From Bacillota bacterium (GTDB lineage: Bacteria > Bacillota > Clostridia > Christensenellales > Aristaeellaceae): a stretch of 64,000 nucleotides of DNA. Each line of letters opens with the position of its first letter. Positions within the stretch are counted from its first letter, which is position 1. The notes beneath the pieces were generated by a model. It was given only the letters and a program-made list of their open reading frames with translations. It was not told the DNA's origin and ran no database searches. A program made the position numbers and the translations under genes. The stretch lies in NCBI GenBank assembly GCA_023411375.1, contig JAEYOW010000050.1:27464-91463 (forward strand), in the 5' to 3' direction. Shown here in pieces: positions 1,785 through 64,000 of this stretch.

Positions 1785-1856
1785 GATACATGCGGATCGA
1801 ATGTATTCTTGACAGAAACCGTTTTTTGATGATAGAATACATACGAAACGAATGTA
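1785..1856. promoter_or_regulatory. Divergent control region: two ATACAT-N9-ATGTAT inverted-repeat operators (1785-1805, 1836-1856) flanking a sigmaA-like promoter TTGACA(1808-1813)-18-TAGAAT(1832-1837) for the TetR gene
   Basis: Direct reading: ATACATgcggatcgaATGTAT and ATACATacgaaacgaATGTAT. The second overlaps the -10 and the likely transcription start site of the TetR gene. This layout is typical of an autoregulated TetR operator. Confidence 0.45.
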
Positions 1857-1867
1857 TGAGAGGTTTG

Positions 1868-2521
1868 ATGAACGAAATGGCCCGCAACAAATACCCTGAA
1901 ATGACCGTTGAAAAGATACTGGATGTTTCCAAGCGCCTGTTTCTGGAAAAGGGGTTTGATAACACCACCATTCAGGATATTGTTGACGGTTTGGATGGGT
2001 TAACAAAGGGCGCGGTTTACCATCACTTCAAATCTAAGGAGGAAATTCTGGACGCGCTGGGCAACAGTATGTTTTTTGAAGATAATCCGTTTACGCTGAT
2101 TGAAAGCCGGACGGATTTAAGCGGGCTCGAAAAAATGCGAGAGGTCATACGGCTGTACCATTCCAGCCGGGAGCGGGAGGAATTGAGCAGACAAAGCGTT
2201 CCGCTGCTCAAAAATCCACGTATTTTGGCCGGAATGCTCGAGTCGGACCGGACCGTTCTTGCTCCGCTATGGCTTAGGCTGATGGAGGAGGGAAACCGGG
2301 ACGGTTCGATTCATACGCAATTCGCCAGGGAACTTTCGCAGGTGATTCCGATGCTGACTGGCCTTTGGTTGGCGCCCTCCGTTTATCCCGCGTCCAAGGA
2401 TGAAATCAGGCAAAAGCTCCGTTTTATCGCAAGATTGCTGGAAAGTATGGGCGTGCCGCTTGTGGACGACGGTATGATGGCTTTGATGAACCAAATTCTT
2501 GACAGGTTCGAGGGGATATGA
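1868..2521 (+). CDS. TetR/AcrR-family transcriptional regulator
   Basis: N-terminal HTH KGFDNTTIQDIVDGLDGLTKGAVYHHFKSKEEIL. Start trimmed to the ATG at 1868 (MNEMARNKYPEMTVEKILD...), which has GAGAGG just upstream. Confidence 0.85.
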   Translation: MNEMARNKYPEMTVEKILDVSKRLFLEKGFDNTTIQDIVDGLDGLTKGAVYHHFKSKEEILDALGNSMFFEDNPFTLIESRTDLSGLEKMREVIRLYHSSREREELSRQSVPLLKNPRILAGMLESDRTVLAPLWLRLMEEGNRDGSIHTQFARELSQVIPMLTGLWLAPSVYPASKDEIRQKLRFIARLLESMGVPLVDDGMMALMNQILDRFEGI

Positions 2522-2562
2522 TCACGGGAGCCGCCCAATATGGGCGGCCTCCCCTTGCCAAT

Positions 2563-2583
2563 ATACATTCATATAAAATGTAT
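2563..2583. promoter_or_regulatory. Third copy of the ATACAT-N9-ATGTAT operator, immediately upstream of the 2598 gene
   Basis: ATACATtcatataaaATGTAT lies 15 nt before the RBS/ATG of the repeat-containing small protein. It is preceded by a GGAGCCGCCCA-ata-TGGGCGGCCTCC hairpin (2527-2550) downstream of the TetR gene. Confidence 0.4.
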
Positions 2584-2597
2584 GAAAGAAAGGACGA

Positions 2598-2921
2598 ATG
2601 ATGACACAGGAAGAATTCGAACAGAAGGTAGAGCATGCTGCGGGCCGGTTTGATCAGAGGGTTGAGGATGCGGCGGCGCGCTTTGAACAAAGGGTGGAGG
2701 ATGCTGCCGACCGCTTTGACAGAGGGATAACGAGCAGATGGAAAAACCGGTCTTTTCGCGTCGCGGTCAAGTCCGTGTCCGTGGCGGCGGAAATCGGGCT
2801 GCTTATTGCGGCAACTTATCTATCCGCACGGGGCTTTGGAGCCGCCGCCTGTTGTTTTTGGCTGGGGCTGCTCGGACTTGCCTGCGAAGTGGTGCTGGCG
2901 ATTGTTTTCAGGCAAAAGTAA
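2598..2921 (+). CDS. Small membrane-anchored protein with three tandem RF(D/E)QRVEDAA repeats
   Basis: AGRFDQRVEDAAARFEQRVEDAADRFDRG is encoded by ~30-bp tandem DNA repeats at 2639-2728, followed by two hydrophobic helices. No recognized family. Confidence 0.5.
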   Translation: MMTQEEFEQKVEHAAGRFDQRVEDAAARFEQRVEDAADRFDRGITSRWKNRSFRVAVKSVSVAAEIGLLIAATYLSARGFGAAACCFWLGLLGLACEVVLAIVFRQK

Positions 2922-2962
2922 AAGGGATATCCTTGGCCGCGGATACAGGGGACTAATGGGTC

Positions 2963-2991
2963 TTTTCCATCTGCCCGGCCTGTGGTATAAT
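2963..2991 (+). promoter_or_regulatory. Putative extended -10 promoter (tgTGgTATAAT) for the MFS transporter leader
   Basis: TATAAT at 2986-2991 with TG at 2983-2984. The -35 (TTTTCC) is weak. Confidence 0.35.
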
Positions 2992-3158
2992 GGCCGTAAT
3001 CCATCAACGAAAGGCGGCGGGCAAATGTTACTTTGCATCGTAAAGGCTCCATGCAAGGTCTGATGTAGGACGAACCCGCATGGAGCCGGCCTCTTTCGTC
3101 CATCGGGCTTTGCATTTTGAAGGTTTATTATTAACCTGACGAAGGAGCAAAGTCTATC

Positions 3159-52921: not shown

Positions 52922-54517
52922 ATGCATTTTAACAATTTAAACCTGATTGAACCCTTGCTGAGCGCCGTGACCGAATGCGGCTATGATGAACCCACGCCCA
53001 TTCAGCGCGAAACCATTCCGCCCGTTTTGGCGGGACGCGACGTGTTGGGCTGCGCGCAGACGGGAACAGGCAAGACGGCGGCGTTCGCGTTGCCTATTTT
53101 GCAGCGCTTGCATACCGAGCGTAAGCAGCACACGGGCAAGCGCACCATCCGTACACTGATTTTGACCCCAACGCGCGAGCTTGCCTTGCAGATTTACGAG
53201 AACTTCGCCAGTTATGGAAAGCGCCTGCCGTTACGCGCCTGCGTCATTTTTGGCGGCGTGGGCCAGCAACCGCAGGTGGACCAGTTAAATCGTGGAGTGG
53301 ATATTCTGGTTGCTACGCCCGGCAGGCTTAACGACCTGATCGGACAGGGATTTATTTCTCTTTCGCATCTGGAGATCTTTGTGCTGGACGAGGCGGACCG
53401 CATGCTGGATATGGGCTTTATCCACGATGTGCGCAAGGTGATCGCCCTTCTGCCTGAAAAGCGGCAGACGCTTTTGTTTTCCGCGACCATGCCGGCGGAG
53501 GTGGAAAAGCTTGCGCTGGGCATCCTTACCAAGCCCGTCACAGTGAAGGTAGATCCTGTGTCCAGCACGGTGGACGCGATCGAACAAAGCCTTTACCTGG
53601 TGGATAAGGCGAACAAGAAGAACCTGCTGGCCGAGCTTTTGCGCGGGCCGGAGGTGGAAAGCGCGCTGGTGTTTACCCGCACTAAGCATGGCGCGGACCG
53701 GGTTGTGCGCGAGCTGTCGCGCGCGGGTATCCAGAGCAAGGCCATTCATGGCGACAAGAGCCAGAGCGCCCGCCAACAGGCGCTGATGGAGTTCAAGAGC
53801 GGCAAGATTCATGTAATGGTGGCGACGGATATCGCCGCCCGCGGCATTGATATCGCCGGGCTGTCCCATGTGTTCAACTACGACCTGCCAAACGAGCCGG
53901 AGGCCTATGTTCACCGCATCGGCAGAACGGGACGCGCCGGCATGGAGGGCAGTGCCGTCAGCTTTTGTTGCATAGACGAGATGAAGGAGCTTTCCGCGAT
54001 TGAAAAGCTGATTGGAAGGGCGCTGCCGCGCAGGGAAAGCGCCTGGCCCATGGAGGTTTTTACAGAAACGGTCAAGCAGCCACGCCAGCCAAGGCCTTCG
54101 CGGCGTGTGGAAACGGTCCAGCCGGAGCGCGGCGTTCGACAGTCCGCGCCAGGGCGCGACCTAAGGGGGAAGCCCGCCCCCGCCCAGCCCGAAAGGCAGC
54201 TTGCCAGGAAGCAGATTGACGAGCGGCGAAGAGCCGCAAAGCCAAGTGGGCGGTCGCAGGAAAAGCACGAGCCGCAGGAACGTGGCGCCGAGGCGCGGCA
54301 GGCGCAAATGACGAAGGCAACGCCGCTGGAGCGTCCGGTGCGTGCAACCCCACTTCGAGCTGCTTCAAACCACGCGGACGGCGGCAGATTTTCCAGAACG
54401 GAGGAACGTCCGCAGGCACGGGAAAGCGCCTATGTGCGCGAGCCGATGCCAGAACCGATGGTTCCACAGCGCCGCGCGCCTAAAAGGCCGTTGGCCACGG
54501 GGCAGGACAGGCGGTAA
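52922..54517 (+). CDS. DEAD-box ATP-dependent RNA helicase with a basic C-terminal tail
   Basis: Motifs Q, I (AQTGTGKT), II (DEAD), III (SAT) and VI ([10 protein letters not shown]); R/Q/P-rich C-terminal extension. Confidence 0.9.
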
Positions 54518-54769
54518 CGGCCGCCTGCTCCAGACTGCCAAAAACGGCTGAAATAGCCGCGTGCTTCCGACTGTTAGGCCGCAAAGTGTGCGATTGTCGG
54601 GAAGCGTTTAACCTTACGCTTTTATCAAATGATCCATTGGGTCGGCGCTTACCTCCGGCGTATATGCCGAAGGCGCGGAGGAAAAGCTGTTTCGGAGGAT
54701 GCTTTGAGCGGGTGGCGGATTGCCGCCCGCTCAAAATAAAACCGTATAAGAACAAAAGGAGTACGCAAA

Positions 54770-56164
54770 ATGCCCAGGCAGATGACGGCCGAGGAAAAGC
54801 TTGTTTACATGACCGAAACACCGCTGCCCAAGCTGGTGTTTACCCTTGCGGTACCCACCATTATCAGCATGCTGATCACCTCGTTTTACAACATGGCCGA
54901 CACCTATTTTGTCGGCCTGATCGGCTCGGCCAGCGCGACGGGCGCGGTTGGCGTGGTGTTTCCGCTGATGTCCATCATGCAAGCGGTTGGTTTTATGTTC
55001 GGGCACGGCTCTGGCAACCACATGTCGCGTGTGCTGGGCGCGGGCGATACCGGGGATGCTCAGCGCATGGCCGCGACCGGCTTTTTCAGCGCGTTTATCG
55101 CCGGGCTTATCATTATGCTTTTGGGCCTGCTGGCGGCCGAACCGCTGGTGTTCGCGCTCGGCTCTACCGAGACGATCGCTCCGTATGCCGGCGAATATAT
55201 CGCCTACCTGATGCCGGGCGCGCCGTTTTTGGTGGCGAGCCTCGTGCTTAACAATCAACTCCGTTTTCAAGGCAGCGCGTTTTACGCAATGATCGGCATC
55301 ACCTCCGGCGCCGTACTCAATGTCGCGCTGGACCCGCTGTTTATCTTCGTGTTTGAGATGGGCGTTGCGGGCGCTGCCCTGGCGACCAGCATCAGCCAGA
55401 TCGTAAGCTTTGTACTGCTCCTGATCGGCACGCGAAGGGGCGGCAATATCCCCATCCGCTTTAAGAGCTTTACGCCCACGACTGAAAACTTCCGCGAAAT
55501 TTTTCGCGGAGGCGTGCCATCTTTGGCGCGGCAGGGACTTGCCAGCCTGGCGACCGTGTGCCTGAACGTGGCCTCCGGCGGCTATGGCGACGCGGCGATT
55601 GCCGCCATGAGCATTGTTTCGCGCATCATGCAAATGGCGGGCTCGGCCATCATCGGATTTGGGCAGGGCTTTCAGCCCATCTGCGGCTTTAACTACGGCG
55701 CGAAGCTTTATGGACGCGTACGAAGCGCCTTTTGGTTTTGCGTGAAGGTCTGTTTTGGTATGCTGCTGGTGATCGCGGCGGTCGCCATGTTTTTTGCGCC
55801 GCAGATCGTCCGGTTGTTTTTGCAAAACGATATGCTGGTGCAGGAAATCGGCGCGCTGGCGCTGCGGCTGCAATGCCTGTTTCTTCCGCTTTTTTCCTTT
55901 GTTATTATCTCCAACATGATGCTACAGACCATGGGCATGGCGGGCAAGGCCACGCTGCTAGCTGCGTCCAGGCAGGGGCTTTTCTTCATACCGACGGTTT
56001 TTATTCTGGAAAGGTGCTTCGGGCTGCTGGGCGTGCAGATGAGCCAGACTGTTGCCGATCTGTTATCCTTTATCCTGGCGGTGCCGCTTACGTTGTCCGT
56101 GCTTAGGGAGCTTAAGCGCAGGGAAGGGGAGCCTGACGGAGCCCGAACGGAAAATTCCAAGTAA
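54770..56164 (+). CDS. MATE family efflux transporter (paralog 3)
   Basis: 12 TM helices. AAAGGAG lies before the ATG at 54770. Confidence 0.85.
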   Translation: MPRQMTAEEKLVYMTETPLPKLVFTLAVPTIISMLITSFYNMADTYFVGLIGSASATGAVGVVFPLMSIMQAVGFMFGHGSGNHMSRVLGAGDTGDAQRMAATGFFSAFIAGLIIMLLGLLAAEPLVFALGSTETIAPYAGEYIAYLMPGAPFLVASLVLNNQLRFQGSAFYAMIGITSGAVLNVALDPLFIFVFEMGVAGAALATSISQIVSFVLLLIGTRRGGNIPIRFKSFTPTTENFREIFRGGVPSLARQGLASLATVCLNVASGGYGDAAIAAMSIVSRIMQMAGSAIIGFGQGFQPICGFNYGAKLYGRVRSAFWFCVKVCFGMLLVIAAVAMFFAPQIVRLFLQNDMLVQEIGALALRLQCLFLPLFSFVIISNMMLQTMGMAGKATLLAASRQGLFFIPTVFILERCFGLLGVQMSQTVADLLSFILAVPLTLSVLRELKRREGEPDGARTENSK

Positions 56165-56193
56165 ATTTTGAGAAAATGTGATAATTCAGCAAT

Positions 56194-56219
56194 TGAAACC
56201 GCCTAACAATTGTCGCGAC
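56194..56219 (+). promoter_or_regulatory. ECF-type promoter TGAAAC-N16-CGAC (sigmaW/sigmaX-like)
   Basis: Read directly, 25 nt upstream of the second ECF sigma gene. Confidence 0.45.
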
Positions 56220-56243
56220 AAACAAGCGAAGGGGCGTAACCGA

Positions 56244-56729
56244 ATGACGAAGGAAGAAATGGGGCGGGGTGTATGGGAACACCGCGCGTCCATGATGCGG
56301 TTGGCGGTTTCGATTGTGCATAACAGTCAGGATGCGGAGGACGCCGTAAGCGAGGCCGCCGTACGCGCCATGAGTAGCGCGGATGGGCTGCGGGACGAGA
56401 GCCGGCTGAGGCAATGGCTTTTGAGCATTACGGCACACTGCTGCTACGACTGCCTGCGCAAAAAGAAGCGCGAACAGCCCACCGGTAATGTGGGCCTGTT
56501 TGATTTACCCGTTTTTGAGGCCGAGCCGGATAACCCGGTGTTTCAAAAGCTCCAAACGCTGCCCGCGTCCCTTTCTCAGGTGCTGACGCTGTACTACTAC
56601 GAGGGCTATCTGGCGCGCGAAATCGCAAAAATTCTCCGCATCCCGCTGAGCACGGTGCTCATGCGCATGAGTCGGGGCCGCCGGAAGCTAAAGGCCCTGT
56701 ACGAGGCGGAAGGGAGGGACGCGCAATGA
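56244..56729 (+). CDS. ECF (group 4) sigma-70 factor
   Basis: Region 2 ...MRLAVSIVHNSQDAEDAVSEAAVRA... and region 4 ...LPASLSQVLTLYYYEGYLAREIAKILRIPLSTVLMRMSRGRRKLK. Confidence 0.8.
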   Translation: MTKEEMGRGVWEHRASMMRLAVSIVHNSQDAEDAVSEAAVRAMSSADGLRDESRLRQWLLSITAHCCYDCLRKKKREQPTGNVGLFDLPVFEAEPDNPVFQKLQTLPASLSQVLTLYYYEGYLAREIAKILRIPLSTVLMRMSRGRRKLKALYEAEGRDAQ

Positions 56730-58624
56730 CGAACCGGGAATTTGACCGCTTTGTGCGCGTCTCCGCGCAGAAAGAGGTATTTATGTTGACCAAGCGAACG
56801 GACGACAGGCTGAAGCGTGCACTTGACGCGCTCGCGCTCAACGTGCGGATACGCAGGCTGACGGCGCGCACGGCGGCGCTGGCCCTGCTGATTGTGCTGC
56901 TGCTGACGGCGGTGGCGCTGGCTGCGGTGAATGCGCCGGGAATTTTGGATGTGCTTAGAAGTTGGAACGAGGACGACAGCGACGTGTTCAGGTCGCTAAA
57001 GGAACAGACGGCGCAGCCTCAGCACCAGGTTTATGAGCTGCCTGATGCGACGATCACCGTGACGGAGGCGATTTTTGAGGGAAACGAGCTGTATGTGACG
57101 GGGCTTGTGGAGCCAAAGCAGGGCGTTGTGATCATGAGCGAGAACTACCTGCCGACAGACCCGTTTGGCATCGATTACCATTATGGGGAGAAGGTGCCGG
57201 AGGGAACGCCAAGCTACGCCGAGGTGGCGGAGAAGGACGGCGCACGGCTGATTCAGGTCCATGCGCAGGCGCATGAGGAAAACTGCGGCGGGCTGGCCGA
57301 TTATAAGCAATACGCGGACGGCACGTTCTCCTTCATCAGCTCGTCGGAGGACGCTTCCGCGCATATCGGGGACGATGGCGCGATCACCGTTACGCTGACG
57401 GGAGCCCAGTGGGAGATGACCGCCGAAAACGCGGAAATAGACGATACCTGCGTGCGGAAAAAATGGACGTTTGGCGTACCGGCAATCGCGAAGGAGCTGC
57501 GCACGCCGGAGCCGACCGCCACGCCCCTGCCCGAGGCGCTTAGGGAAAACACGCTGGCCGTGATTGGCGATCACGAAAGCAGTGAGATCTATCGGGCGTT
57601 CCATGAGGCGGAGCCGGACGCGATCGTGGATTTGCGGCAGCGGGAATACGGGGACGACGGCGGGGAGTTGACCCTGAGCCGAATGCTGGATGGAACGCTT
57701 CAATGGGACGTTGCGTGTGTGGACGGCAACGACCCGCTGCTTGGGGAGCTTTTGAAGCGCGGAATGCTCGCGGATCTGTCCCAGAGCGGCGTTGTTTCCG
57801 AGGCCGCCTTGCGGATGTACCCGCGCGTGCGGGAACACATCCAAAGCGGCGGGGTGGTATACGCTGTGCCGGGATGGCCGGGCCAGAAATGGTATCTGTC
57901 GCCGCGAAAAGAGGCCGCGGAAAAGCTTGGCATCGAGGCCGGGGCCGACCCGGCGACGTTTGACGGGCTGCTGGATTTTATCGAGCGCTACCTGGCGCTG
58001 CCCAGGGAGGCGCGCACGGGCTATGTGATGTACGAACCCGTTTACCAGCGCATCCTGACAGAGCAGGCCGTGCGCATGCGGGTGGCGGAGTGCCAGTATC
58101 TGAATGAGCGGGTTACACTGAGCACACCTGAAATGCTCAGGCTGCTTGCGCGCATCGAACAGCTATCCGCAAGGCTGCTGGAAGCGGAGGGGACGCCGGC
58201 AGGGGCGGGCGGCACGGAGGTGTTGCTGATCGATTCGTTCATTCCCTACCGCCTGTTTGCGGATTCGCCGCTGATCGCGGAGGTTTGGAGCGATCTGTAC
58301 GTCGTCAACGCAAACAGCGTGCGCCTAGGGCAGGCGATGCGCTACGCGGAGTGCGCTATCACGGGCATGAAGGAATTGCGGATGTGGAAGATTTATCCCG
58401 TACAGGCGGAGGAGCTGAAGGAGAAAGATCGGGAGGAGCTTCAAGTTTATGCGGAGCGAATCGCGCCATACCTGTTTTATGCGCCGCCGGATCCGAGGTA
58501 CGAGCTGTGCGGGGAGGACGGGGAGACGCGCAAAAGTCTGGAAAACCGGTATTTTTCCGGCAAGATTGGGGCGGAGGAATATTTGCGGGGCCTTGACGGG
58601 CTGCTGAACCAAAAAGCGGAATAA
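56726..58624 (+). CDS. Putative cognate anti-sigma factor: short cytoplasmic N-terminus, one TM helix and a ~560-aa extracytoplasmic domain of unknown fold
   Basis: ATG overlaps the sigma stop (ATGA). TM LTARTAALALLIVLLLTAVALAAV. No ZAS motif. Gene order and topology suggest an anti-sigma factor, but there is no family-level match by eye. Confidence 0.5.
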   Translation: MTNREFDRFVRVSAQKEVFMLTKRTDDRLKRALDALALNVRIRRLTARTAALALLIVLLLTAVALAAVNAPGILDVLRSWNEDDSDVFRSLKEQTAQPQHQVYELPDATITVTEAIFEGNELYVTGLVEPKQGVVIMSENYLPTDPFGIDYHYGEKVPEGTPSYAEVAEKDGARLIQVHAQAHEENCGGLADYKQYADGTFSFISSSEDASAHIGDDGAITVTLTGAQWEMTAENAEIDDTCVRKKWTFGVPAIAKELRTPEPTATPLPEALRENTLAVIGDHESSEIYRAFHEAEPDAIVDLRQREYGDDGGELTLSRMLDGTLQWDVACVDGNDPLLGELLKRGMLADLSQSGVVSEAALRMYPRVREHIQSGGVVYAVPGWPGQKWYLSPRKEAAEKLGIEAGADPATFDGLLDFIERYLALPREARTGYVMYEPVYQRILTEQAVRMRVAECQYLNERVTLSTPEMLRLLARIEQLSARLLEAEGTPAGAGGTEVLLIDSFIPYRLFADSPLIAEVWSDLYVVNANSVRLGQAMRYAECAITGMKELRMWKIYPVQAEELKEKDREELQVYAERIAPYLFYAPPDPRYELCGEDGETRKSLENRYFSGKIGAEEYLRGLDGLLNQKAE

Positions 58625-58682
58625 TCCTCCGGTTCAAGTGCGGCGCAGCGGAATTTGAACGCGACGCGGTGGAATTCCTCGC

Positions 58683-58711
58683 TTGCGTGGAGGCGAGCAA
58701 AATGATATACT
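58683..58711 (+). promoter_or_regulatory. Putative promoter TTGCGT-17-TATACT for the GntR gene
   Basis: Read directly. Confidence 0.35.
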
Positions 58712-58809
58712 CTGGATTCAACTGGGAAATGGACGGCGCTTTCTTGGCGGCCAGCGAGGCGGCGCATGAGCGCCTTATCCCAGCAGTTGATACGAAGCGA
58801 GGAACCACC

Positions 58810-59514
58810 ATGCCACAGGAACACGGAAACGCCATGAGCAATCAGGTCTACGAGCACCTGAAAGATTTGATTTTATCGCAGCAGATCAAGCCCGGCGAGA
58901 AAATTCCCGAGGCGAAGATCGCCGCGCAGTTCGGCTTCAGCCGCACGCCCATTCGCGAAGCCATCAAGCAGCTTGCCAACGACGGCATCGTAACGCTCTA
59001 TCCCAACCGTTTTGCGGAGGTGGCCGTCTTTTCCGGAGAATGGCTCCAGGAGGTGGGCATCGTTCGCCTGGCGTTGGACACGGTTGCCGCGCGCCTTGCC
59101 ATTTTGCACGGAAGCAACTACGACTATTCCGTGATGGAAGCGTATAACGAAAGATGCCTGAGCGCCACGCGCGCCGGGGATGTGGCGCAACGCATCAAAA
59201 TGAACTGCGCTTTTCATCTGGAATTAAGCCGTATCGGCAAGAACGCGGAGCTTTACGATATGCAGAAGCGCCTGTATCTGAAGCTGGAGTTTGCGCAGGC
59301 ATGCCACTACAGCAATGTGCAGCCCGAGGAAGAGCAATACCGCCAGCACGCGGAAATGATCAGGGCGCTCTACGACCGTGATGAGGAACGGCTGATTACG
59401 CTGCTGGCAACGCATGAACATACTTTTCATAATATGGAGAAGGACCCGGCGGTTATCCGGGATATCAACCTGCTGTTTGCGCCCGTGCCGCGCGGCGGCG
59501 GTACGGACGCCTGA
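58810..59514 (+). CDS. GntR-family (FadR-like C-terminal domain) transcriptional regulator
   Basis: Winged HTH ...KIPEAKIAAQFGFSRTPIREAIKQLANDGIV... followed by an all-helical FCD-like domain. Confidence 0.85.
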   Translation: MPQEHGNAMSNQVYEHLKDLILSQQIKPGEKIPEAKIAAQFGFSRTPIREAIKQLANDGIVTLYPNRFAEVAVFSGEWLQEVGIVRLALDTVAARLAILHGSNYDYSVMEAYNERCLSATRAGDVAQRIKMNCAFHLELSRIGKNAELYDMQKRLYLKLEFAQACHYSNVQPEEEQYRQHAEMIRALYDRDEERLITLLATHEHTFHNMEKDPAVIRDINLLFAPVPRGGGTDA

Positions 59515-59530
59515 AACGACAGAGATACGA

Positions 59531-59583
59531 GCGCTTCCGGGATGGGAAGGTTTTCCTTCCATATGCCGGGAGCGTGTTTTTTT
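59531..59583 (+). terminator. Compound-hairpin intrinsic terminator after the GntR gene
   Basis: CGCTTCCGGG-[ATGGGAAGG-tttt-CCTTCCAT]-atg-CCGGGAGCG followed by TTTTTTT. Confidence 0.7.
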
Positions 59584-59647
59584 CGTTGGCTTCTTTGAAA
59601 GATGATGATATGAGTAGAAAGCCAATCATGGTTTGCTATAGAAATTT

Positions 59648-59701
59648 TGGTATACCATTTTATAAAATGGTATTGACGTAGGCTTGAATGTATGGTATGC
59701 T
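59648..59701 (+). promoter_or_regulatory. TAXI-TRAP promoter TTGACG-17-TATGCT overlapped by palindromic operators TGGTATACCA and TACCATTTTATAAAATGGTA
   Basis: Perfect 10-bp palindrome at 59648-59657 and perfect 20-bp palindrome at 59653-59672, abutting the -35 at 59673-59678. GT-N-AC cores of this kind are typical of GntR/FadR operators. Confidence 0.5.
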
Positions 59702-59746
59702 GTGCCCAAGTCCAAAACGTTTATATTACGAAGGAGTGGTTTTCAA

Positions 59747-60733
59747 ATGAAGAAATGGTTATGCCTGTCACTGTCCCTGATGCTGGCGCTGTGCGCCGCA
59801 GGTTCCGCTTTCTCTGAGGGAATTCTGAGCTTTGGCACCGGTTCGGTTGGCGGCACGGATAATGTGGTGCTGGAGGCGCTGTCCTCCGTAGTTAACAGCA
59901 AAACCGGTCTGCGCACCTCCACCGTGACCACCTCCGGCGGTGCGGAGATCATCTACCTGATTGAGTCCGGCGACGTTCAGGGGGGCTATTCCGGCACGAT
60001 TGACCTGGTAAACGCCATGAACGGCGCTGCGCCCTTCACCGAGGCAATCGGTGTGGAAAATATGCTGCAGGGTTTCGGGTTCGTGACCTGGGCGCTTCCC
60101 ATTGTGGTGCTGGACGGCTCCGACATTAAGTCATACGAGGATTTGGAGGGCAAGCATATCGGGTTCCCGCCCGCCGCTTCCAGCTCTACCGCCGTGCTCA
60201 ACCTTGTGATGGAGGCCTATGGCCTGACCGGCAAATGCACCATTGACTATTTCACCTGGTCAGAGGGTTATACCGCGCTCAAGGATGGCCGGGTGGACGC
60301 CTTTGTCGGCTCTTACGCCAACTTAAGCCCCATCTCCGGCATTGTGGAAATCGAGGCTACAAATCCCATCCGCGTGCTGAACATGTCCGAGGAGGTGGCG
60401 GCGAAGGTAAAGGAAATGAATGCCGGTGTGGGCACGGGAAAGCTCACCTCTGCTGAGTGTGCGACCATCCCAGAGGGCGAGAGCTATCTGGCCGCCGCAA
60501 ACTCCGGCGTGGTGATTCTCAGTGCGAACGTCAGCGAGGAAGACGCTTATGCTTATACCAAAGCGGCAATTGAGAATCTGGATGAGCTTAAAAACATCTC
60601 CACCTACTTTGACAAGTTCGAGGACGTCGCGGTTTCCGTGTGTGTCGAAACCATCCCCTTCCATCCCGGCGCGGCCCGTGCCCTTAAGGAAGCGGGCATG
60701 TGGGAGGACCGCTTTACCGTATACGGCGAGTAA
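59747..60733 (+). CDS. TRAP transporter solute receptor, TAXI family (lipoprotein-type signal peptide)
   Basis: MKKWLCLSLSLMLALCAAGSAF, then the TAXI-like ...GTGSVGGTDNVV... and ...KDGRVDAFVGSY.... Confidence 0.8.
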   Translation: MKKWLCLSLSLMLALCAAGSAFSEGILSFGTGSVGGTDNVVLEALSSVVNSKTGLRTSTVTTSGGAEIIYLIESGDVQGGYSGTIDLVNAMNGAAPFTEAIGVENMLQGFGFVTWALPIVVLDGSDIKSYEDLEGKHIGFPPAASSSTAVLNLVMEAYGLTGKCTIDYFTWSEGYTALKDGRVDAFVGSYANLSPISGIVEIEATNPIRVLNMSEEVAAKVKEMNAGVGTGKLTSAECATIPEGESYLAAANSGVVILSANVSEEDAYAYTKAAIENLDELKNISTYFDKFEDVAVSVCVETIPFHPGAARALKEAGMWEDRFTVYGE

Positions 60734-60843
60734 AACCGCTTGATTGCTTCAAGCATTCTTACGGCGTTCGCAAGCGTCTGAAACCACGGCGGGTGTTTCA
60801 CACAGAAACGCCCGCCGCTTTATGAAAGGTGGAACGTCTCTCC

Positions 60844-62784
60844 ATGTCCGAAACCATCGCTGTACAAGACAAGAGCAAGGTAGAACTCTGGGTGGACCGC
60901 GCGACGACCGTCATCGCTGTCGTTATGAGCGTCTATCACCTGCTTGCGGCTAATTTCACCATTTTTGCTTCGGAACAGCATATCAATCTGCATATCGCTT
61001 TTGCATTAGTCATCATCTTCCTTCAGGCCATTAAGCTGACGGATACCAAATCCAAGGTTCGCAGCGTTTTCATGATTGTTTTTTTGCTGGCGAGCATCGT
61101 AACCGCCGCCTACATTCATTTTAATTCCACGCGCTTTCAGATGGCGATTGGCCGCCAGCCGTTTGATAAGGTGTTTTCAGGCGCGGTATTTCTGGTTGTT
61201 ATTTTGATCGCCACAAAGCGCACGTGGGGCTGGGTGATTCCGATTATCGCGCTCGTGGCGCTGGCCTACGGTTACTTTGGTCCATACATGCCCGGCGTTT
61301 TCTTTCATTCCGGGCTTAGCCTGCCGCGCCTGATCACCTATGTGACCACCAACTTCACGGGCGTATACGGCATGCTTGCCTCCGTGTCAGCCAATACGAT
61401 CGTTCTGTTCACCATTTTCGGCGGGCTGATGGAGGCATTTGGGGCCATCAGCTCCATCATGAACGTCGCCATGGCGGCCAGCACCAAGATTCGCTCCGGC
61501 GGCGCTCAGGTTGCCGTGCTTTCCAGCGGATTGATCGGCTCCATTACGGGCAGCGTAGCCGCCAATATTACGCTTACGGGTGCGGTTTCCATCCCGCTGA
61601 TGAAGAAGCGCGGATACCCGCCGGAATTCGCGGCGGCCTGCGAGGCGACGGCCTCCACGGGCGGCGCGATCCTCCCGCCGGTGATGAACGCCGCGGCATT
61701 TATCATCGCATCTTGGACGGGCATTCCTTACATTTATATCGTGGCGGTGGGCGTCGCGCCCGCGCTGCTGTACTATCTGGGCATCGCCATCAGCGTGTAT
61801 ATCAAAGCGCTTAAGCTGGGCGACGAAAAGGTCAAGGGCGAGATGCTGCCGCAGTTTCACAAGGCGTTTGGCAAGCTGATGATGTTCATTGTGCCGGTAA
61901 TCGTGCTGGTGGTGCTGATGATTATGAGCTACTCGCCGCAGAAGGCTCTGTTCATCGCCATCCTGACGCTGATCGGCATGGGTCTGGCGCTCCAGCTTAT
62001 CGACCGGGAGAGCGGCGGGCCGGTGAACGCGCTCAGGGAATTTGTAAAAAAGGTGTTCGCGGGCTTTGCGTCCGGCGGCAAGACCGTGGCGGGTATCGCC
62101 GTTTGCATGGCGACCATGGGCTGCGTGGTGGAGATTTTGACGGCAACGGGCCTTCCATCGAAGATTTCGCAGTTCGCGCTTTCGTTGGCGGGGGATAATC
62201 TGTTTGTTCTGGCGCTTTTGGTGGCGGGCGTTTGCCTGATCTTCGGCATGGGTATGCCCAGCGGCTCTGCGTACATTCTGGCGGCGCTGCTTGGCGCACC
62301 GGCGCTGACCACCTTCGGCGTACCGCTGATTGTGGCGCATTTCTTCGTGTTCTACTATGCGGAGCTGAGCGCGATTACGCCGCCGGTCGCCATCGGGTGC
62401 CTGGTTGCGTCCGGGCTGGCAAAGGCCAAGTTTATGAAGACCTGCCTCATCTCCATGCGGCTTGCCATCGGCGGTTTTGTGCTGCCGTTCCTGTTCCTCT
62501 ACCGTCCGGCAATTCTATTGCAGGGGCCTTGGTACGAGACGGTTTGGGCGGTTTTGATGGTGGCGATCTTCATGTTTGCGTTCATCATCGCTGCGGAGGG
62601 TTTCTTCTTGCAGAAGATGAAGTGGCAGGAGCGCGCCTTGGCGGCGGTCAGCGCCGTATGCTTCCTGATTCCGGTTTATGTGCTTGACTTTGCGGGCATT
62701 GCGCTGTTTGCCGCGCTGCTGGCGTGGCACATCCGCAATTTCCACCGGAACAGGTCCGGCGCGTCTGTTCCACAGGAGGCCTGA
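60844..62784 (+). CDS. TRAP transporter fused 4TM/12TM permease (TAXI-associated DctQM-like)
   Basis: About 16-18 TM helices and the conserved DctM-type region ...GSITGSVAANITLTGAVSIPLMKKRGY.... Confidence 0.85.
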   Translation: MSETIAVQDKSKVELWVDRATTVIAVVMSVYHLLAANFTIFASEQHINLHIAFALVIIFLQAIKLTDTKSKVRSVFMIVFLLASIVTAAYIHFNSTRFQMAIGRQPFDKVFSGAVFLVVILIATKRTWGWVIPIIALVALAYGYFGPYMPGVFFHSGLSLPRLITYVTTNFTGVYGMLASVSANTIVLFTIFGGLMEAFGAISSIMNVAMAASTKIRSGGAQVAVLSSGLIGSITGSVAANITLTGAVSIPLMKKRGYPPEFAAACEATASTGGAILPPVMNAAAFIIASWTGIPYIYIVAVGVAPALLYYLGIAISVYIKALKLGDEKVKGEMLPQFHKAFGKLMMFIVPVIVLVVLMIMSYSPQKALFIAILTLIGMGLALQLIDRESGGPVNALREFVKKVFAGFASGGKTVAGIAVCMATMGCVVEILTATGLPSKISQFALSLAGDNLFVLALLVAGVCLIFGMGMPSGSAYILAALLGAPALTTFGVPLIVAHFFVFYYAELSAITPPVAIGCLVASGLAKAKFMKTCLISMRLAIGGFVLPFLFLYRPAILLQGPWYETVWAVLMVAIFMFAFIIAAEGFFLQKMKWQERALAAVSAVCFLIPVYVLDFAGIALFAALLAWHIRNFHRNRSGASVPQEA

Positions 62785-64000
62785 ATGAGAGCGAAACGGA
62801 TTTGCCTGATTGCAACCATGGATACCAAAGCCAAGGAAGCCCGCTTTCTGCGAAGCGAGCTGGAACGGCTCGGGCTTCTGGTTACGCTGGTGGACACCGG
62901 CATTTTGAAGGAAAGCCCGGAAGACGTTGATATTTCGCAAAGCGAGGTGTTGGGCGCGTCTTGTGGGGAAGTAAAGCGGGCCAAAACCCGCGCTGAGGCC
63001 TCCGACTATATGGGAAGGGGTCTGTGCCGGGTGGTGGACAGGCTGTACCGGCGTGGAGAGCTTGCGGCGGCCGTTTCGCTGGGCGGCTCGGGCGGCACGG
63101 CGCTGGCGAGCATGGCTATGCGAGCGCTTCCGCTGGGCGTGCCCAAGGTGATCGTTTCTACAATGGCCTCCGGTAACACGCTGCCCTATATACAGGGCGA
63201 GGATATTTTGCTGATCAACCCAGTGGTGGACATCCAGAACCTGAATTTTCTTACCCGCAACGCGCTTCGGCGCGCTGCGGGGACGGTGGCCGCGATGCTG
63301 AAAGCGCCGCTTGAGCGTGATGGGGCGAAGCGCGCCGTTGCGATCAGCGGCTTTGGCGTGACAACGCCCTGTGTGGACGCCTGCGTGGAGCGGCTGGAGC
63401 AAGAGGGATACGAGGTGCTGGTTTTTCACGCGCGGGGCATGTCCGGTGGGCGAATCATGGAAAAGATGATTGCGGAAGGCCACTTTGCGGGCGTGCTTGA
63501 TTTAACCACCAGCGAAATCGCGGACGAGGTGGCCGGAGGGATTTATGCCGTCGGCCCCGAACGGTTGAGCACGGCTGCGCGGCTGGGGATTCCATATGTG
63601 GTTACGCCGGGCGCGTTGGAGATGATCAACCTGGGCACCGAGGATACGCTGACAGAGAAGCAGCAGGGCCGCGTGCTTTACAGGCACAGCCCGTCCTCCG
63701 TTAAGATGCGCGCCAACACGGAGGAATTGCGCGCATGCGCCCGCGTCTTTGCGGACCGGCTGTCGCAGGGACAGGGCAACGTCGCCGTACTGGCCGCGAA
63801 GAAAGGCTTTTCAATGGTAAACCGTGAGGGCCAGGTGTTTTACGATCCGGAGGCGGACGCGGCGTTCCTGAGGGAGCTGACGGAGCGTATGCCCGCCCGG
63901 GTGCCCGTAACGGTTCTTGATACGCATCACAACGACGCCGCGTTTGCGGAGGCATGCGTGCAAACGCTGCTTGCGCTGATTGACGGCAAGGAAAAGGAAT
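62785..64000 (+). CDS. UPF0261 (Tm-1-like) family protein, 3' partial at the window edge
   Basis: Reading from the ATG at 62785: MRAKRICLIATMDTKAKEARFLRSELERLGLLVTLVDTGI.... SD GGAGG 5 nt upstream; the ATG overlaps the permease stop (TGAATG). Not in the ORF track because no stop is reached. Confidence 0.7.
   Translation, partial: MRAKRICLIATMDTKAKEARFLRSELERLGLLVTLVDTGILKESPEDVDISQSEVLGASCGEVKRAKTRAEASDYMGRGLCRVVDRLYRRGELAAAVSLGGSGGTALASMAMRALPLGVPKVIVSTMASGNTLPYIQGEDILLINPVVDIQNLNFLTRNALRRAAGTVAAMLKAPLERDGAKRAVAISGFGVTTPCVDACVERLEQEGYEVLVFHARGMSGGRIMEKMIAEGHFAGVLDLTTSEIADEVAGGIYAVGPERLSTAARLGIPYVVTPGALEMINLGTEDTLTEKQQGRVLYRHSPSSVKMRANTEELRACARVFADRLSQGQGNVAVLAAKKGFSMVNREGQVFYDPEADAAFLRELTERMPARVPVTVLDTHHNDAAFAEACVQTLLALIDGKEKE

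Follow-up and report, generated by a model that had tools for sequence, protein, structure and literature searches.

What does a UPF0261 protein do in an operon with a TAXI-type TRAP transporter? This question is raised by the right-hand end of a 64,000-nucleotide (nt) stretch of a Bacillota genome (Aristaeellaceae; contig JAEYOW010000050.1, positions 27,464 to 91,463 of the forward strand), where genes for a GntR-type regulator, a TAXI receptor, a fused TRAP permease and a UPF0261 protein lie in a row. We refer to this whole stretch as the window, and labels such as L001 and L002 denote the contigs and genome loci with which it was compared. UPF0261 proteins and their TIM-barrel partners (PF09370) make up a large family of bacteria, archaea, fungi and all land plants, for which one catalytic activity has been reported (MarK, in 2025); MarK is atypical, since it has no partner. 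With regard to TAXI-TRAP transporters, few substrates are known. An annotation made from the letters of the window (here the sequence-only reading) had noted these four genes and proposed that UPF0261 is linked to a transporter instead of to its usual partner, the PEP-hydrolase-like barrel.

Our results indicated that the barrel is in fact present. The window ends at the first base of the UPF0261 stop codon. The contig L002 is 100% identical to window positions 53001-64000 (11 kb; window coordinate = L002 coordinate + 49746), and following the sequence past 64000 on L002, as had been suggested, showed that a PF09370-like gene comes directly next. Many metagenomic contigs and one NCBI assembly encode exactly this TAXI protein, and the PF09370 gene starts 7 nt past the UPF0261 stop in 8/8 of the identical-TAXI contigs. 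The apparent replacement of the barrel by a transporter is an artefact of the window end point; the locus combines transporters with the usual UPF0261/PF09370 pair (a split Tm-1). Its genes and operon terminator are as follows:

58810-59514, plus strand: gntR, FadR-subfamily (FCD) GntR transcription factor, 234 amino acids (aa) (PF00392, PF07729)
59747-60733, plus strand: TAXI-family TRAP solute receptor, 328 aa, with N-terminal signal peptide (TIGR02122, PF16868)
60844-62784, plus strand: fused TRAP (QM) permease, 646 aa (TIGR02123, PF06808)
62785-64000, plus strand: UPF0261 / Tm-1-like ATP-binding protein, all 405 codons in the window, stop codon at 64000-64002
~64010-64834, plus strand: PF09370 "PEP-hydrolase-like" TIM barrel, 274 aa (E = 1e-96; from L002)
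~64831-66198, plus strand: DASS-family carrier, 455 aa (Na_sulph_symp and CitMHS Pfams; from L002)
~66228-66259, plus strand: operon terminator, 14-bp GC-rich hairpin and U tract (from L002)

Family scans bore out the proposed gene set (GntR/FCD regulator, TAXI receptor, fused TRAP permease and UPF0261), and direct reading of the window verified the coordinates given for the genes, the promoter and the palindromes. The receptor scored 141.2 bits against TIGR02122 (cut-off 84.35; PF16868, E = 5.5e-37) and the permease 521.7 bits against TIGR02123 (cut-off 320.65; PF06808, E = 2e-65). The UPF0261 protein matched PF06792 (E = 1.9e-52), PF23189 (E = 2.3e-74) and NF002674 (439 bits; cut-off 335). 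For the DASS carrier, PF00939 (6e-38) and PF03600 (9e-36) were both above the Pfam cut-offs, TIGR00785 came slightly under its own (187.2 bits; cut-off 198.6), and the succinate carrier VcINDY was matched at 1e-26. The idea that these genes form one unit is consistent with their spacing: the receptor and the permease are 110 nt apart, and the downstream junctions measure 0 nt (permease/UPF0261), 7 nt (UPF0261/PF09370) and -4 nt (PF09370/DASS). The UPF0261 start had been described as overlapping the permease stop; the ATG at 62785 only abuts the TGA at 62782-62784. One strong terminator serves the operon, 3' of the DASS gene, and the 5' untranslated region is only ~40 nt long. The spacing and the single terminator can suggest that the five genes (TAXI receptor, TRAP permease, UPF0261, PF09370 and DASS) are co-transcribed.

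The arrangement was well conserved in other genomes. Scanning with a UPF0261 alignment, one genome per species, gave 27 loci (the window's own species was not among them), and the open reading frames (ORFs) of these loci were searched with six proteins from the window locus. The order TAXI-permease-UPF0261-PF09370 (hereafter the cassette), with equally tight junctions, was found in 25/25 genome loci whose UPF0261 protein is 48-77% identical to that of the window, so the comparative neighbourhood analysis that the sequence-only reading had called for found UPF0261 co-conserved with TAXI-TRAP throughout. These loci span Lachnospiraceae, Oscillospiraceae, 'Limiplasma', Anaerotruncus, Angelakisella, Allofournierella and three Spirochaetales, and include Christensenellales-like ones; annotated contigs of Enterocloster clostridioformis, Anaerotruncus colihominis and others agree on the order. 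A DASS gene follows in most loci, lies on the opposite strand in L026 and is missing from the clade with 48-50% identity. The TAXI orthogroup is sharply bounded, with identity dropping straight from 45% (E = 1e-84) to 29% (E = 1e-17), and the two lowest-identity members that could be placed are still within the cassette. Genes flanking the cassette differ in every lineage, and therefore the conserved unit is the transporter plus the protein pair, which appears self-contained. No further enzyme was conserved with the cassette among the compared lineages.

Upstream of the receptor gene, palindromes overlapping the promoter had been predicted to be operators of the GntR regulator. The elements found there and around gntR are:

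59648-59657, strandless: candidate operator box O1, TGGTATACCA, a complete palindrome of FadR type matching TnGTATACnA
59652-59673, strandless: perfect 22-bp palindrome composed of the O1 right half, an AT-rich 10-mer and the O2 left half
59668-59678, plus strand: candidate operator half-site O2, TGGTAT fused to the -35 TTGACG, invariant in 8 aligned promoters
59673-59678 and 59696-59701, plus strand: TAXI promoter, TTGACG and TATGCT with a 17-nt spacer and a TG extended -10 (promoter scan)
59693-59701, plus strand: candidate operator half-site O3, TGGTAT overlapping the extended -10 (TG-n-TATGCT; promoter scan)
58683-58711, plus strand: candidate gntR promoter, TTGCGT-17-TATACT, with the same layout upstream of the L036 and L018 orthologues
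59531-59583, plus strand: intrinsic terminator of gntR (hairpin 59531-59575, then U7; -39.2 kcal/mol, z = -5.3)

The promoter was found just as the sequence-only reading had given it, with the TG extended -10 in addition. The "perfect 20-bp palindrome" TACCATTTTATAAAATGGTA (59653-59672) is present, although its true extent is 22 bp; it does touch the -35, as had been said of both elements, whereas TGGTATACCA itself stops 15 nt short. Seven other loci have a GntR orthologue (E = 1e-87 to 1e-132) beside the cassette, either in the same orientation or divergent, and the TAXI promoters of these loci (UPF0261 58-77% identical to the window's) were compared with that of the window. A single 1-nt gap sufficed to align the operator-promoter region of all eight. 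The columns T-n-G-n-A-T-A-C-n-A, followed by ~10 AT-rich bases and AAT-n-GTATTGAC, were invariant in 8/8 promoters, with a step from O1 to O2 of 20 nt (19 nt in L018). A third TnGTA(T)-like half-site lies 20 nt past O2 within the spacer in L009 (imperfect, TAGTGT) and L015, 23 nt past O2 within the spacer in L023 and L042, and 25 nt past O2, on the -10, in the window, L017, L018 and L036. The full box TnG(T/A)ATACnA was present in 8/8 loci with a GntR orthologue vs. 0/15 loci with the same cassette and without one, which argues for the predicted role of the palindromes as GntR operators.

The 22-bp palindrome is perfect in the window and L015 only, and elsewhere just its 5-nt outer arms persist, which points to the TnGTAT half-sites, and not the AT-rich centre, as the conserved units. 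At the variable 'n' positions the arms were complementary in 5/8 promoters for the large palindrome and in 4/8 for O1, so that arm covariation across the 8 promoters gave no support for selection on the 22-bp palindrome as such. Half-sites of the TnGTAT type were also seen at -176 (L022) and -110 (L034) from the TAXI start, in loci with neither an adjacent GntR orthologue nor a full box; they may be the target of a regulator whose gene lies elsewhere. The Spirochaetales loci L019, L020 and L021 carry, ~150-260 nt upstream of the TAXI start, several direct and inverted copies of TGAAACAT(G)TTTCA instead of GntR boxes, and these presumably bind another regulator that acts on the cassette.

The regulator is of the FadR type and has its own terminator, as had been read from the sequence: a PF00392 winged helix (E = 3.4e-18, residues 10-66) is joined to an all-helical C-terminal FCD effector domain (PF07729, E = 7.3e-15, residues 85-202), and 0/200 shuffles folded as well as the terminator. 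The most likely start is the ATG at 58810, chosen because the orthologues all open with M-x(5-8)-AMS[NE]QVYEHLK; the longer start at 58702 in the contig gene calls (270 aa) was rejected, its 36-aa N-terminal extension not being conserved among orthologues. In NCBIfam the protein is weakly similar to LldR, NanR, GlcC, PdhR and CsiR, and against the equivalogs LldR, PdhR, NanR, GlcC, CsiR and PhnR it scored at most 77 bits (cut-offs 218-330 bits). The regulators to which this FCD protein is weakly related sense lactate, glycolate, pyruvate and sialic acid. The consensus promoter scan did not list the gntR promoter, whose -35 is weak. A box-like sequence, TGATATACTC (58703-58712), overlaps its -10, and a good box, AAATGGTATACTn, encloses the gntR -10 in L036 (TTGCCG-17-TATACT inside AAATGGTATACTC) and L018 (TTGCCT-17-TATACT inside AAATGGTATACTA). 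This layout suggests possible autoregulation, although the window copy is degenerate (2 mismatches to TnGTATACnA).

With regard to the UPF0261 protein, the best solved match was Tm-1 (3WRY, 2.5e-69), and MarK (9MPY) was matched about as well, at 3e-64. MarK is the only UPF0261 member with a demonstrated activity, a kinase that converts ATP to ADP on phenolic hydroxyls, acting on phenolic ketones and aldehydes; it works alone, within an acetovanillone operon, and its kinase activity was demonstrated for the E16K form (PMC12624787). The lysine for the ATP phosphates is native in the window protein (K15, in the motif MDTK), at the position of Tm-1 K20 and of the MarK E16K substitution, and D13, T14 and K15 were invariant across 11 relatives. 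In the acceptor pocket, MarK G195, H219 and H304 are kept as G191, H215 and H301 (3/7 positions). It is plausible that the window protein is a kinase with a substrate other than those of MarK. Orthology with MarK was considered and rejected on the basis of the 3/7 pocket residues and of the absence of carboxylase and phosphatase genes from the locus. In plants UPF0261 is fused to the barrel, with which it co-evolves in bacteria (PMC5028733).

The barrel itself has some 45 invariant residues, mostly polar. Its structural model (predicted local distance difference test 90) resembled phosphate-binding barrels at least as well as PEP-mutase/isocitrate-lyase enzymes, and the label "PEP hydrolase" carries little information. 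In L048, a 399-aa protein (1843-3042, plus strand) fuses a full-length PF09370 barrel (E = 3e-101) to an AraC-type helix-turn-helix and adjoins the cassette; a second, stand-alone PF09370 gene (253 aa) comes next, both upstream of TAXI-permease-UPF0261-PF09370. This fusion indicates that the barrel can act as a small-molecule sensor for the cassette, and that it binds a compound of relevance to it. It is unusual for a TIM barrel to provide the sensing part of a transcription factor, and this may account for the name by which the barrel was known earlier, "TIM-barrel signal transduction protein" (PMC5028733). A different variant, L045 (958-10928), holds a SorC-type regulator, DctP-DctQ-DctM, a cupin, an MmgE/PrpD-family protein, UPF0261 (451 aa, 29% identical), PF09370 (55% identical) and DASS, with a second DASS gene on the other strand. 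In this locus the barrel and DASS stay together despite a change of TRAP type and of UPF0261 lineage.

What the receptor binds could be narrowed in one respect. The closest solved TAXI protein matched at E = 1e-16 only, which is too distant for a ligand to be transferred from the solved receptors, and glutamate alone could be excluded. The glutamate-affinity residues of VcGluP are replaced (Y45 by D38, Q93 by G83), and across 22 orthologues these positions hold D/A and G/S; the signature GGT[D/A]N...G83 is specific to this orthogroup. These replacements predict a substrate that is not glutamate. Most TAXI orthologues are ~335-360 aa long, with a lipoprotein-type signal (e.g., LAAC, LAGC) and then a Ser/Gly-rich linker. 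By comparison, the receptors of the window (signal at 59747-59820), L017 and L018 measure only 328 aa and carry a site resembling that of signal peptidase I (AFS/EG), which is unusual for a receptor in a Gram-positive-type cell. In L043 (3244-6964), the TAXI gene is cut to 207 aa beside two serine recombinase genes, with the remaining cassette intact; an insertion has likely inactivated the receptor.

Taken as a whole, the reading we favour, and which we regard as reasonably likely, is that of a GntR-repressed, substrate-inducible five-gene operon that couples TAXI-TRAP uptake to phosphorylation by UPF0261, conversion by the barrel and DASS transport. When no inducer is present, GntR dimers would sit on the full box TGGTATACCA (around -45), on O2 (-35) and on O3 (extended -10), and this occlusion of the -35 and -10 would block RNA polymerase. 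A small organic-acid effector would bind the FCD domain and lift repression, and the five genes would be expressed in one message. TAXI-TRAP would import an organic anion other than glutamate, and UPF0261 would spend ATP on phosphorylating this compound or a close derivative, as MarK does with its substrates. The PF09370 barrel might then bind and convert a phosphorylated or enolisable intermediate, the pair corresponding to a split plant Tm-1. DASS would move a di- or tricarboxylate, either as a second uptake route or in exchange of product and substrate. The imported compound is probably an organic anion with a hydroxyl or enolisable group, and its product probably enters central metabolism directly, because no other enzyme is conserved with the cassette. 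A hint that it is a carboxylate comes from L045, where the pair and DASS stand with a DctPQM TRAP system and a PrpD-family protein, and from the VcINDY match. That the locus may be an uptake-plus-modification module for an organic acid, as had been proposed from the sequence, is a reasonable hypothesis.

Several observations weigh against this model. The MarK pocket is partly lost (T196 to V, F283 to M, I285 to N, H348 to V), and H215 is Thr in 2/11 relatives. The part played by PF09370 here is a guess, because MarK works without a barrel partner. Spacing is the sole basis for co-transcription of the five genes. DASS is missing from about one-third of the cassettes and most cassettes have no adjacent GntR, and so neither is essential to the core function. 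Attempts to read the substrate from neighbouring genes gave no consistent pathway: L013 has DHDPS-family and MR_MLE genes, L042 glutamate dehydrogenase, L044 spore genes, L045 PrpD/cupin genes and L047 the sugar genes ROK/SIS/PMI. The hints from L013 (DHDPS family), L045 and L047 conflict.

The main rival explanation is that UPF0261/PF09370 acts here not as a metabolic enzyme but as a sensor or regulator that depends on ATP, either tuning the two transporters or signalling that substrate is available. TeaD, an ATP-binding accessory protein in a TRAP operon, would be comparable. The lack of any further enzyme conserved with the cassette would fit such a role, as would the L048 barrel, which forms the sensor domain of an AraC-type regulator, the signal-transduction name of the barrel (PMC5028733), and the fact that Tm-1 in plants acts via ATP-bridged protein binding (PMC12624787). 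However, the sole UPF0261 protein tested biochemically, MarK, is a true kinase, and the ~45 invariant, mostly polar residues of the barrel are what a catalytic site would have. More distant pairs also stand beside oxidoreductases, acyl-CoA enzymes and ABC systems and have no TRAP genes (an old-yellow-enzyme-like reductase and a sugar-type ABC system in L041, acyl-CoA enzymes in L038), and we consider a purely regulatory pair unlikely. If the pair is indeed enzymatic, its substrate could be an aromatic acid, phenolic or otherwise, released when plant or dietary material is broken down; UPF0261 would act as MarK does on a phenolic hydroxyl, and the barrel would process the phosphorylated aromatic. 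MarK phosphorylates phenolic ketones and aldehydes (PMC12624787). Its contacts with the phenolic oxygen (hydrogen bonding) and with the ring (stacking) involve H219 and H304, whose counterparts here are H215 and H301; the carriers of the cassette are gut and rumen anaerobes, and work cited in PMC11574862 connects a TAXI system with anaerobic ortho-phthalate degradation. The same histidines are nonetheless found in Tm-1 and would mark the family and not the substrate, 4/7 pocket residues differ, none of the acvCDEF carboxylase or phosphatase genes to which MarK owes its role lies nearby, and the DASS and PrpD links favour aliphatic di- or tricarboxylates. An aromatic substrate therefore seems to us rather improbable.

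As for the control region, the palindromes could be AT-rich promoter-upstream elements or sites of another factor. A single 10-mer is not improbable: the box TNGTATACNA has 1 match vs. 0.13 expected, at least one match occurred in 13/100 shuffles, and the 10-mer by itself is weak evidence. The centre of the 22-bp palindrome, moreover, is not conserved. Against this, the 20-mer palindrome had 0 matches in 100 shuffles, even allowing 3 mismatches, and TGGTAT occurs 4 times in 59648-59698 (51 bp) vs. 32 times in the entire 64 kb. The real support for the operator interpretation comes from conservation in other genomes: the full box tracks the adjacent GntR orthologue (8/8 vs. 0/15), the core and its distance from the -35 show essentially no variation, although the sequence around them has diverged, and a copy of the box lies on the gntR -10 in two relatives (L036, L018). 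The box also has the TnGT...ACnA form. This form is typical of operators of the FadR subfamily, e.g., the B. subtilis GntR site around TTGTATACAA. We regard a non-operator origin of the palindromes as very improbable.

In terms of known systems, the locus resembles several in part. The sialic-acid clusters offer a functional analogy: next to the TRAP importer SiaPQM they encode, as NanK/NanE, a kinase and a TIM-barrel enzyme that binds phosphate. Here, too, an uptake system would share its transcript with a kinase that uses ATP and with a small TIM barrel. The locus is not a member of these clusters at the sequence level, its putative kinase belongs to an unrelated family, and no lyase or deacetylase genes are present, so that the resemblance may serve as a model for the division of work within the pair only. 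The FadR-subfamily repressors (B. subtilis GntR, LldR, PdhR, GlcC, NanR) share the winged helix-turn-helix, the FCD domain and a promoter-overlapping TnGT-N-ACnA palindrome, but the arrangement here is a full box and two half-sites at 20- and 25-nt steps and not a single palindrome.

Compared with MarK (Saro_1862 of Novosphingobium aromaticivorans, PDB 9MPY; PMC12624787), the window protein has the same two-domain UPF0261 architecture over its full length (E = 3e-64), the ATP-site lysine and the acceptor-site residues G191, H215 and H301. MarK differs in being stand-alone: it is encoded by the first gene of an acvCDEF acetovanillone operon that has neither a PF09370 partner nor a transporter. 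It also differs in 4/7 pocket residues; the FGVTTPCV motif here matches Tm-1 and not MarK. Tomato Tm-1 (3WRY) is the best solved match, and plant Tm-1L is UPF0261 fused to the same barrel (TBST/PF09370; PMC5028733). In the bacterial locus these are two separate neighbouring genes with 7 nt between them, inside a transporter operon. The known role of Tm-1 is to bind a viral replicase. The characterised TAXI-TRAPs, i.e., TtGluBP (1US4) and VcGluPQM (8S4J), both for glutamate, and the alpha-ketoglutarate TAXI system of Proteus mirabilis (PMC11574862), likewise consist of a receptor with a secretory signal peptide and a single fused permease; both subunits of the window score above the NCBIfam cut-offs. 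They differ in that the receptor similarity is E = 1e-16 only, with Y45 and Q93 of VcGluP replaced by D38 and G83, and none of them is linked to UPF0261/PF09370.

All components come from known families, and the logic of repressor, importer and cytoplasmic enzyme is ordinary; this is not a new kind of system. Our literature searches on UPF0261, PF09370, COG5441/COG5564, the product names and 2P10/Mll9387 returned the MarK and Tm-1 evolution papers only, in which the cassette is not described; nor did we find described the fixed TAXI orthogroup, split Tm-1 pair and DASS association across Clostridia and Spirochaetes. The cassette joins into one unit a sharply bounded TAXI orthogroup, a protein pair and, in part of the genomes, a regulator whose operator can be read, and so offers three independent handles on the substrate, i.e., the receptor ligand, the repressor effector and the enzyme. 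It is possible, if still doubtful, that the cassette is the native setting of the split Tm-1, in which the receptor delivers one acid, UPF0261 phosphorylates it, the barrel converts it in a single self-contained step and DASS exchanges the product. If this is true, the TAXI ligand would give the first physiological substrate and reaction for a UPF0261/PF09370 enzyme. The unit is also present in the cultivable gut species Enterocloster clostridioformis and Anaerotruncus colihominis; in strain DSM 17241 of the latter it lies on NZ_CP102255.1, within 979432-1000625. The locus is a good experimental entry into two poorly understood families.

Some further features of the locus and its surroundings are given here:

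60787-60817, plus strand: stable hairpin between receptor and permease genes, 13 bp, then CUUUAU (intergenic region -45.9 kcal/mol, z = -5.4)
56178-58624, plus strand: gene for an ECF-type sigma-70 factor overlapping the gene for a 632-aa protein

The intergenic hairpin is possibly a partial terminator or a stabiliser that would favour expression of the receptor over the permease. The length of this spacer is not conserved (only 30 nt in L009, Enterocloster), which makes the hairpin lineage-specific, and an Rfam scan of 58400-64000 gave zero matches at E <= 1. Upstream of gntR, the 632-aa protein had only a sub-threshold N-terminal match to DUF4179, and no other family was matched; the two genes have the look of a sigma/anti-sigma pair whose extracellular part is large and uncharacterised. 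In the L008 strain, the sigma gene of this pair is shortened to 104 aa. On the other side, strains of the window species diverge directly past the operon terminator. A helix-turn-helix (HTH_31) gene, an N6/N4 DNA methylase and a large helicase (YagJ-like) lie 3' of it in L004 and L006 (16697-20987), vs. a 64-aa membrane ORF and spoVA genes in L001-L003, L005, L007 and L008, near rpmH-rnpA-yidC (the origin region).

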